Positions 45,669 to 46,532 of a DNA stretch of 64,000 nt are shown here, piece after piece. Both the position numbers and the translations under genes were made by a program. The stretch is from Bdellovibrionales bacterium (GTDB taxonomy: Bacteria > Bdellovibrionota > Bdellovibrionia > Bdellovibrionales > JAUICD01): the NCBI GenBank assembly GCA_965262715.1, contig OZ253553.1:1600001-1664000 (forward strand). Reading direction: 5' to 3'. Each line of letters starts with the position of its first letter. Position 1 is the first letter of the stretch. A model generated the notes under the pieces. That model did not search any database and was not told where the DNA came from. It saw only the letters and a list, made by a program, of their open reading frames with translations.

Positions 45669-46532
45669 CCTTAACATTGTGTAAAAGAATGTAGATATCC
45701 TTTCTACTAAAAATGAACAGGCTTTTGAGGCAATCAGCATTTTACTGACGGTGTGAACCGTCAGGCTGATTGCCCAAAAGTGGACAGAGGCTCGCCTCGA
45801 GAGGCCGGTTTATTTTGAGTGAGGCAGCAAAACAAGGAAAAAATCTTTGAAGCAATGACTTGATGTTTTAACCTAAGCCTCGGAGTCTTTGAGTGATCGC
45901 TTGTGTAGCAATCACTCTGCGGAAGATCTCGTCTTTAGCTTAAAACATCAATTCTTATTAGCTATAAAGATTTAGATGATTTGTAAGAGAGAAAGAGAAA
46001 AGATAGTAAGAGGAAAGTTTCCTTAACATGATGTTAAAGAATGAGGAGAGTCTCCCTCCTAAAAATGAACGGATTTTCTAGGCGATGACCATTTTACCGA
46101 CGGTGAGAACCGTCGGGGTCATCGCCAGAAAACGGCCAGAGGCTCGCCTCGAGAGGCCGGTTTATTTTGAGTGAGGCAGCAAAACAAGGAAAAAATCTTT
46201 GAAGCAATGACTTGATGTTTTAACCTAAGCCTCGGAGTCTTTGAGTGATCGCTTGTGTAGCAATCACTCTGCGGAAGATCTCGTCTTTAGCTTAAAACAT
46301 CAATTCTTATTAGCTATAAAGATTTAGATGATTTGTAAGAGAGAAAGAGAAAAGATGGTAAGAGGAAGTTTCCTTAACATGATATTAAAGAATGAGGAGA
46401 GTCTCCCTACTAAAATGCATCAAGCTTTCTAGGCGATAACCATTTTCTGATGTAGCCATCAGGGTTATCGCCAGAAAGTAGCCAGAGGCTAGATGCATTT
46501 TAGTGAAACAGAGGATGCATTTTAGTGAAACA
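45669..46532 (+). repeat. ~352-bp tandem array: element A (x3, variable) alternating with a near-identical block containing element B (x2)
   Basis: CCTTAACAT heads at 45669, 46021 and 46372; B hairpins at 45860-45951 and 46212-46303. Confidence 0.9.

Follow-up and report, generated by a model that had tools for sequence, protein, structure and literature searches.

The non-coding repeat of about 150 nt described here as element A is a real, strongly structured and strand-specific repeat family, and we consider it fairly likely to be a selfish mobile element of the non-autonomous kind, whose folded single strand would be recognised and cut by an enzyme; the search for such an enzyme described below found no candidate. 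Genome-wide nhmmer searches of the genome hosting the window (the whole stretch of 64,000 nt analysed here; the genome, G000, from an uncultured Bdellovibrionales-type bacterium, has a size of 2.94 Mb and 33.6% G+C) revealed 479 hits, 255 on the plus strand and 224 on the minus strand, with 294 of the hits being full length and 247 distinct. The hits form 261 same-strand clusters, which are treated as loci; 170 of these are singletons and the largest array contains 16 copies. Element A accounts for 2.2% of all sequence in the genome and for 10.5% of the non-coding part, and it is mostly intergenic, with just 40 of the 479 hits overlapping a called ORF by more than half of their length.

A covariance model trained on an alignment of 43 diverse copies (153 positions, 41 pairs) finds eight full-length copies in the window, scoring 138–159 bits. 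The first-pass annotation of the window had described a dispersed multi-stem repeat with covarying stems; that observation is confirmed, since all the copies it listed were recovered with the model and the stems it quoted are present in the window sequence. The features of the window related to element A are the following:

45664–45830, plus strand: element A copy 1, with the head, the P1–P2–P3 three-way junction and the tail (140.8 bits, model positions 1–153)
45831–46015, plus strand: module B, a second repeat (89% over 300 nt in the window repeat search)
46016–46182, plus strand: element A copy 2, with stem changes compensated relative to copy 1 (146.6 bits)
46183–46366, plus strand: second copy of module B (same window repeat search)
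46367–46514, plus strand: element A copy 3, with the short form of P3 and a doubled tail unit (149.3 bits)
20152–21289: MITE with inverted ends TAGAAGC..TCTCAAAAAT at 20152–20170 and 21271–21289
20212–20894, minus strand: tandem array of three units of 257 nt (99–100% identity, 138–141 bits each)
20212–20380, 20469–20637 and 20726–20894, minus strand: the element A copies of this array, each with a re-copied flank
20957–21101, minus strand: weak element A remnant (covariance model)
21073–21225, plus strand: element A copy (158.5 bits)
25207–25284, minus strand: degenerate 5' fragment of element A (26.2 bits, E-value 0.003)
33545–33696, plus strand: element A copy (148.8 bits)
33704–33825, plus strand: headless partial copy, model positions 42–152, after a spare tail unit (52.5 bits)

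Copy 1 is located directly 3' of a response-regulator gene (Pfam Response_reg), and copy 3 lies upstream of a gene assigned by Pfam to arginine decarboxylase. Module B (about 184 nt) is a separate repeat with a hairpin of its own, often placed 5' of the element A head and co-repeated here with element A with a period of 352 nt; its 3' end is the purine-rich tract often found before the head, it also occurs between element copies on a contig of a G000-like organism (see below), and comparison of module B with Rfam gave chance matches only. Other parts of the window contain an IS30-family element of about 1.34 kb, present at 28291–29630 and 52226–53570 as two copies that are 99.5% identical, encoding a 317-aa HTH_38 + rve transposase on the minus strand and having about 24 full-length copies in the genome with inverted ends of their own. 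Tandem paralogous genes for proteins of 653 and 655 aa (5321–9441) show a weak match to the mTERF domain, unusual in bacteria, and an ORF of 1076 aa at 29833–33063, one of nine paralogues in the genome, is built of tandem repeats of about 51–53 aa (period 153–159 nt). Many ankyrin-repeat proteins and one SWIB-domain protein, encoded at 21593–27760, 38842–39222, 40932–41417 and 49020–49490, suggest a eukaryote-associated lifestyle.

RNAalifold analysis of the 43-copy alignment indicates that the core of element A is a three-way junction. P1 is the stem that closes it, P2 is long, contains an A/T-rich internal loop and bears a cap at its tip, and P3 is short. Compensatory double changes occur in 31 of the 41 pairs of this fold, and 94.2% of paired cells in the alignment are indeed paired compared to 78.5% in shuffles, none of 500 reaching the observed value; sliding the 3' partner by 1–3 columns makes the proportion drop to 37–50%. 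A structure-blind test employing the APC-corrected G statistic on 127 representatives under 85% identity placed nested Watson–Crick pairs of the fold at all of the ranks 1–10 among 15,051 column pairs, and the covariation claimed previously is thus far beyond chance. The head, a stretch of 43 nt that had been pointed out as conserved (TTTCCTTAACAT), is unpaired and conserved in sequence, yet shows no covariation; a helix between columns 3–10 and 27–34, suggested by the RNA fold, was rejected (74.6% paired versus 74.4% in shuffles). Conserved unpaired letters are also found in the AGA loop of P3, the A/T-rich internal loop and the GNRA cap. Among 53 disjoint pairs of close copies from different loci (mean identity 94%), the proportion of differing sites is 4.0% for paired positions, 6.7% for unpaired positions of the core and 9.3% for the head, and 20 of the pair changes are compensated doubles.

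Several features assign the fold to one strand. The P2 cap is a GNRA loop (GTGA, GTAA, GCAA, GAGA, GAAA or GCGA) in 76 of the 127 representatives and in none of them on the complement, and the P3 loop reads AGA in 120 of 127. The strand beginning with the head is more stable than its complement in 102 representatives against 25 with RNA parameters, and in 105 against 20 with DNA parameters. The suggestion that a strand-specific fold is under selection is supported by the covariation, the GNRA and AGA loops and the folding energies; the accompanying claim of G–T pairs in one orientation is mildly true, the excess of G–T over A–C being only about 1.5-fold (137:94 in the representatives and 49:32 in the close pairs), and strand specificity is better shown by the loops and folding energy than by this excess. 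Copy 3, folded as a single sequence, gives −58.6 kcal/mol (z −7.9) as RNA and −36.4 kcal/mol (z −10.2) as DNA, and the same Y shape is predicted in both cases, so sequence alone cannot tell which of the two folds. Selection for a fold of one strand with GNRA caps, and stems that are more conserved than loops in close copies, would also be expected of a transcribed RNA module used by the host as an mRNA stabiliser, a processing site, a protein platform or a small RNA, with its spread being a secondary matter, a view that has been put forward for ERIC, Correia and bcr1. We regard such a module as a rather unlikely explanation; GNRA-type loops and the fold are also stable as DNA, and the genomic distribution described below bears on it further.

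The covariance model detected element A in G000, in G001, which belongs to the same genus, and in three contigs of G004, and it found no copies in G002, G003 and 36 other genomes of the order. The three G004 contigs (C1, C4 and C11) are syntenic to G000 and 85–91% identical to it, whereas G003, the congener of G004, is just 68–71% identical in the same genes; these contigs are therefore probably mis-binned DNA of a G000-like organism, and G004 was rejected as an independent carrier. A two-motif pattern scan of the genomes of 185,579 species gave, among the matches listed, many matches in one Bdellovibrionales MAG record only, the others among the matches listed being single chance hits. For 98% of the 247 G000 copies and 98% of the 58 copies of the congener G001, the nearest relative resides in the same genome, and identity is 92–93% within a genome versus 77–80% between G000 and G001, a pattern that suggests either recent amplification in each genome separately or concerted evolution. 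Many compensated changes set orthologous copies apart, and gene conversion that replaces copies may therefore look like transposition.

Comparison of relatives identified two sites found both filled and empty. The spacer between rpsQ and rplN in the ribosomal-protein operon houses four sense copies of element A in G000, each preceded by a 52-nt copy of the 3' end of rpsQ, and three copies on the G000-like contig; G001, G002 and G003 have no element there, the two genes being 15–40 nt apart or overlapping, and the element A copies at this site thus represent an insertion. The spacer after recG contains an element on the G000-like contig and is empty in G000. Junctions are blurred at the recG site and base-exact at neither; two more filled/empty comparisons were too rearranged to read. 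The window locus offers no synteny-based empty site, since its genes are 70–78% identical in G001 and scattered, and contigs of four DNA runs over 44300–47300 are broken at repeats and bridge nothing, and hence revealed no insertion polymorphism. On the G000-like contig, two additional copies of the 3' portion of rplN, with 62-aa ORFs ending like L14, are present at 13708–13896 and 16627–16815, several kb downstream of the real rplN, as another re-copied gene end.

Judging by their position, the rpsQ–rplN copies must be co-transcribed with the operon and cannot be strong terminators, a placement that would suit an RNA module. Copies in co-directional spacers are also mildly co-oriented with the flanking genes (90:57, p 0.008), in agreement with that explanation, but 39% of the copies in such spacers are antisense to both genes; furthermore, the copy number, the arrays and the fragments give the impression of amplification running unchecked, the loci decay by internal deletion, the element is limited to one genus-level lineage and Rfam contains no match. 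No replication-strand (lagging-strand) bias was found with the origin and terminus set by GC skew (clusters 137:124, p 0.46), nor any bias by intergenic type, the element A classes matching the background.

The 5' start of element A is sharp, 408 of the 479 hits beginning at model positions 1–10, and the DNA upstream is purine-rich, otherwise variable. The 3' end reads ...ATTTTTAGTGAAAC; of 148 distinct flanks, 90 continue with AG and 37 with AA. It had been stated that the element has no terminal inverted repeat (TIR) of its own, which is correct (the best match of the head to the reverse-complemented tail is 8/12), and no target-site duplication (TSD) of fixed length was found among 33 dereplicated singleton copies, where the mean best repeat is 2.42 nt as against 2.48 ± 0.22 nt with swapped flanks.

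Among 24 arrays consisting solely of full-length element A copies, 10 have a spacer that duplicates, over its whole length, the upstream flank (the DNA before the first head), and one has a spacer copied from the downstream flank; the array at 20212–20894 in the window, too, has a spacer that is a copy of the upstream flank. The copied flank starts 40–245 nt upstream of the element's own head, and arrays of this kind re-copy the end of the upstream gene. Of 11 arrays inspected, eight have the new joint immediately after a tail motif, the exact joint being placed after ...TAGTGAAAC, and in four of these eight the copied flank starts with AG, shared with the acceptor site. Taken together, the spacers and joints indicate an exact and reused joining point, namely the 3' end of element A.

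Arrays of tandem [flank + element] units are also what might be left by processes lacking a dedicated enzyme, where hairpin-stalled replication, template switching and gene conversion make the arrays and homogenise the copies, while rare illegitimate recombination seeds new loci. The AG shared with the acceptor site at 4/8 tail-motif joints and the replacement of orthologous copies by other variants are in line with this, as is a duplicated region of G000 (2746862–2747041 / 2779402–2779567), where a segment of about 165 nt in a PDDEXK_2 gene has been swapped for a 166-nt element A copy, a replacement and not a clean insertion. Yet the 5' end is sharp across 261 dispersed loci, the 3' joint is exact in 8/11 arrays, and conserved unpaired letters such as the AGA loop (120/127) point to specific recognition; an enzyme-free origin is therefore improbable in our estimation. 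Hardly any probability is assigned to the idea that element A is an attC-like folded site on which a tyrosine recombinase acts and that its arrays resemble cassettes. Structure more conserved than sequence, arrays in the same orientation with spacers and conserved extrahelical letters resemble such sites, and G000 and G001 have two generic tyrosine recombinases each; however, the spacers duplicate the local upstream flank and are not cassettes, the 261 loci include copies on either strand, and G002 lacks element A despite its seven tyrosine recombinases. Moreover, the terminal R''/R' boxes of integron attC sites pair with each other, whereas the head of element A does not pair with the tail and has no pairing partner.

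The MITE at 20152–21289, which encloses the minus-strand element A array and the copy at 21073, belongs to a family with 57 exact TAGAAGC..TCTCAAAAAT ends in the genome (93 + 77 with up to three mismatches). The family has several internal variants, some of them with headless or complete element A, and seven members of 331 nt contain a headless version of the Y-shaped core. No transposase matching these ends was found in G000, and an autonomous IS between such ends was rejected, the enclosed ORFs being ordinary genes. That a TIR-bounded family shares the Y-shaped core and has an end resembling the P1 arm, and that the head of element A resembles the 5' arm of P1 at 8/12 positions, in a genome full of IS elements, brings up a double-stranded MITE that a transposase of the DDE type would mobilise in trans, with the palindromic arms as binding sites and the covariation as a trace of symmetric recognition. 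We give this little credit, because element A lacks the traits of a classical MITE (TIR, fixed TSD and an autonomous IS with the same ends), no IS ends match it, strand-asymmetric loops and energies are unexpected under duplex recognition, and only 57 exact MITE ends exist versus 261 element loci. Since element A has a single exact joint, at its 3' end, and neither TIR nor TSD, its anatomy is more in keeping with an end-specific mechanism acting on a single strand than with a transposase of the classical type.

The search for an enzyme that moves element A covered the multi-copy genes of G000 and genes of the Y1, Y2, IS110, TnpB, reverse-transcriptase and tyrosine-recombinase types. G000 contains multi-copy genes of IS30 (28 copies), Transposase_31 (32), PDDEXK_2 (12) and S23p (14), as well as DDE_Tnp_1 families, IS4/IS5-type elements, IS256, IS3 and IS1595; the ends of none of 15 multi-copy gene families in this genome match element A, and no head...gene...tail arrangement was found among 169 partial hits. 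The first-pass annotation had offered a HUH/REP-type mobiliser as one possible user of the fold and proposed looking for RAYT/Y1 transposases or reverse transcriptases next to the copies; gene content does not support this part of its interpretation, while the selection on a strand-specific fold was upheld and no Rfam family matched. Y1_Tnp (PF01797) is matched once in G000 and not at all in G001 and G004, and no PF01797 gene flanked by element A repeats, as in the RAYT arrangement, was found. The Y1 gene of G000 (1839505–1839864) belongs to a plain IS200 with flanking hairpins of its own, unrelated to element A. Y2_Tnp (PF04986) matched in 0/5 genomes, with the control likewise silent in 14/14 genomes. 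Neither G000 nor G001 has an IS110 gene, each has a single weak match to the TnpB-type zinc ribbon inside an ORF of about 1350 aa, and RVT_1 is found three times in G000 and not in G001; thus, no Y1, IS110, TnpB or reverse-transcriptase gene common to G000 and G001 was found.

Other candidates were considered and rejected. PDDEXK_2 tracked the element in five genomes of the family, with several near copies in G001, but it is also present in 4/38 element-free genomes, one of which has 14 copies, the G004 case is doubtful, and three intact G000 genes lie 4–8 kb from any element A copy. Transposase_31 (YhgA-like) occurs in 16 copies in the element-free G003. S23p, the four-helix-bundle family of 23S rRNA intervening-sequence proteins, has 7/14 genes within 100 nt of element A compared to 9.3% of all genes; element A clusters with other mobile genes, and as no fixed arrangement of S23p with it was seen, this proximity is read as junkyard clustering. 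The head of element A resembles an Xer half-site; the dif/Xer idea was dropped, since a loose dif-type pattern gave five sites, none of them near the skew terminus.

Among known mobile elements, derivatives of IS200/IS605 (PATEs) and the IS91, ISCR and Helitron elements have differing ends, a hairpin near the 3' end, no TIR or TSD, one exact end with the other variable, and tandem arrays that include flanking DNA. Element A shares these features, and the combination of one constant and one variable end, co-mobilised flank and tandem arrays in particular is an IS91/ISCR/Helitron-like trait. It differs from these families in that the carriers have no Y1 gene in common, that a lagging-strand bias is absent and that the folded strand is joined at a fixed point at its 3' end.

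Comparison with Rfam 15, which the first-pass annotation had proposed, gave no match for the window at the gathering threshold; in E-value mode, only chance hairpin matches to miRNA and snoRNA models appeared (15–25 bits, with thresholds of 50–115), and none of the known ribozymes or RNA families fits element A. A full-text search of the literature, which was not exhaustive, found no description of it, and the term "undescribed" is therefore provisional. By kind, element A is a new member of the structured interspersed repeats, such as bcr1, ERIC and REPIN, and is probably selfish. The closest kind, by likeness of kind and not of sequence, appears to be bcr1 of the Bacillus cereus group, which PMC3184786 describes as a repeat of about 155 bp that is transcribed, bears compensatory changes and has no transposase of its own; the transcription and compensatory changes reported there would also suit an RNA module. 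Similar size, dispersed intergenic placement, a multi-stem compensated fold and locations not conserved between relatives are common to both repeats. According to PMC3184786, however, bcr1 has direct repeats of 5 bp and forms two stem-loops independent of each other, whereas element A has no fixed duplication and folds into a three-way junction. Flank re-copying anchored at the 3' end further sets element A apart from bcr1.

REP and REPIN sequences, served by RAYT (TnpA-REP), are high-copy intergenic hairpins thought to move as folded single strands and they resemble element A in forming within-genome populations and in having no TIR or TSD (PMC3116915, PMC8266576). REPs, however, are palindromes of 20–40 nt, joined as doublets in REPINs, that flank a RAYT gene, whereas element A is a three-way junction of 150 nt with an unpaired conserved head and without a RAYT found. 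ERIC, YPAL/RU-2, Correia/NEMIS and RPE are structured repeats of 100–170 nt, often co-transcribed and restricted to a family or genus, according to PMC3184786. ERIC and Correia have TIRs and TA duplications, neither of which is found in element A, and RPEs insert in frame into genes, while element A lies by more than half within ORFs in few of its hits.

Returning to the preferred reading, in which element A moves as a folded single strand cut by an enzyme, the fold would be needed for copying rather than for the host, and the head and the conserved bulges and loops may be protein contacts. A nick at the 3' end would release a 3'-OH whose usual partner is the head end, with a circle or a copy able to insert elsewhere as the outcome; sometimes the 3'-OH would be joined instead to a nearby upstream site, giving rise to the [flank + element] arrays. 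The catalyst might be an unrecognised protein common to both genomes or a host nuclease or recombinase. A bolder version, put forward here as a tentative and not very probable proposal, is that element A serves as the non-autonomous partner in a new bacterial mobility system, in which the strand forming the three-way junction is cut at its exact 3' end and pasted, with the GNRA cap and the fixed bulges serving as a handle, by an enzyme outside the HUH, DDE, IS110, TnpB and RT groups or by a co-opted host nuclease, the flank-copying arrays being a by-product.

Structured repeats without a transposase, such as bcr1, ERIC and RPE, have been mechanistic orphans for decades, and element A represents an unusually clean case, offering hundreds of copies, strong covariation, a clear folded strand, a base-exact 3' joint and two separate amplifications. 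Because the amplification took place separately in two congeners, the candidate enzymes that they share are few and testable. Element A is also relevant to the annotation, assembly and binning of MAGs of this type, and it reshapes the genome that carries it, re-copying the ends of genes, including those for ribosomal proteins, and sitting in essential operons.
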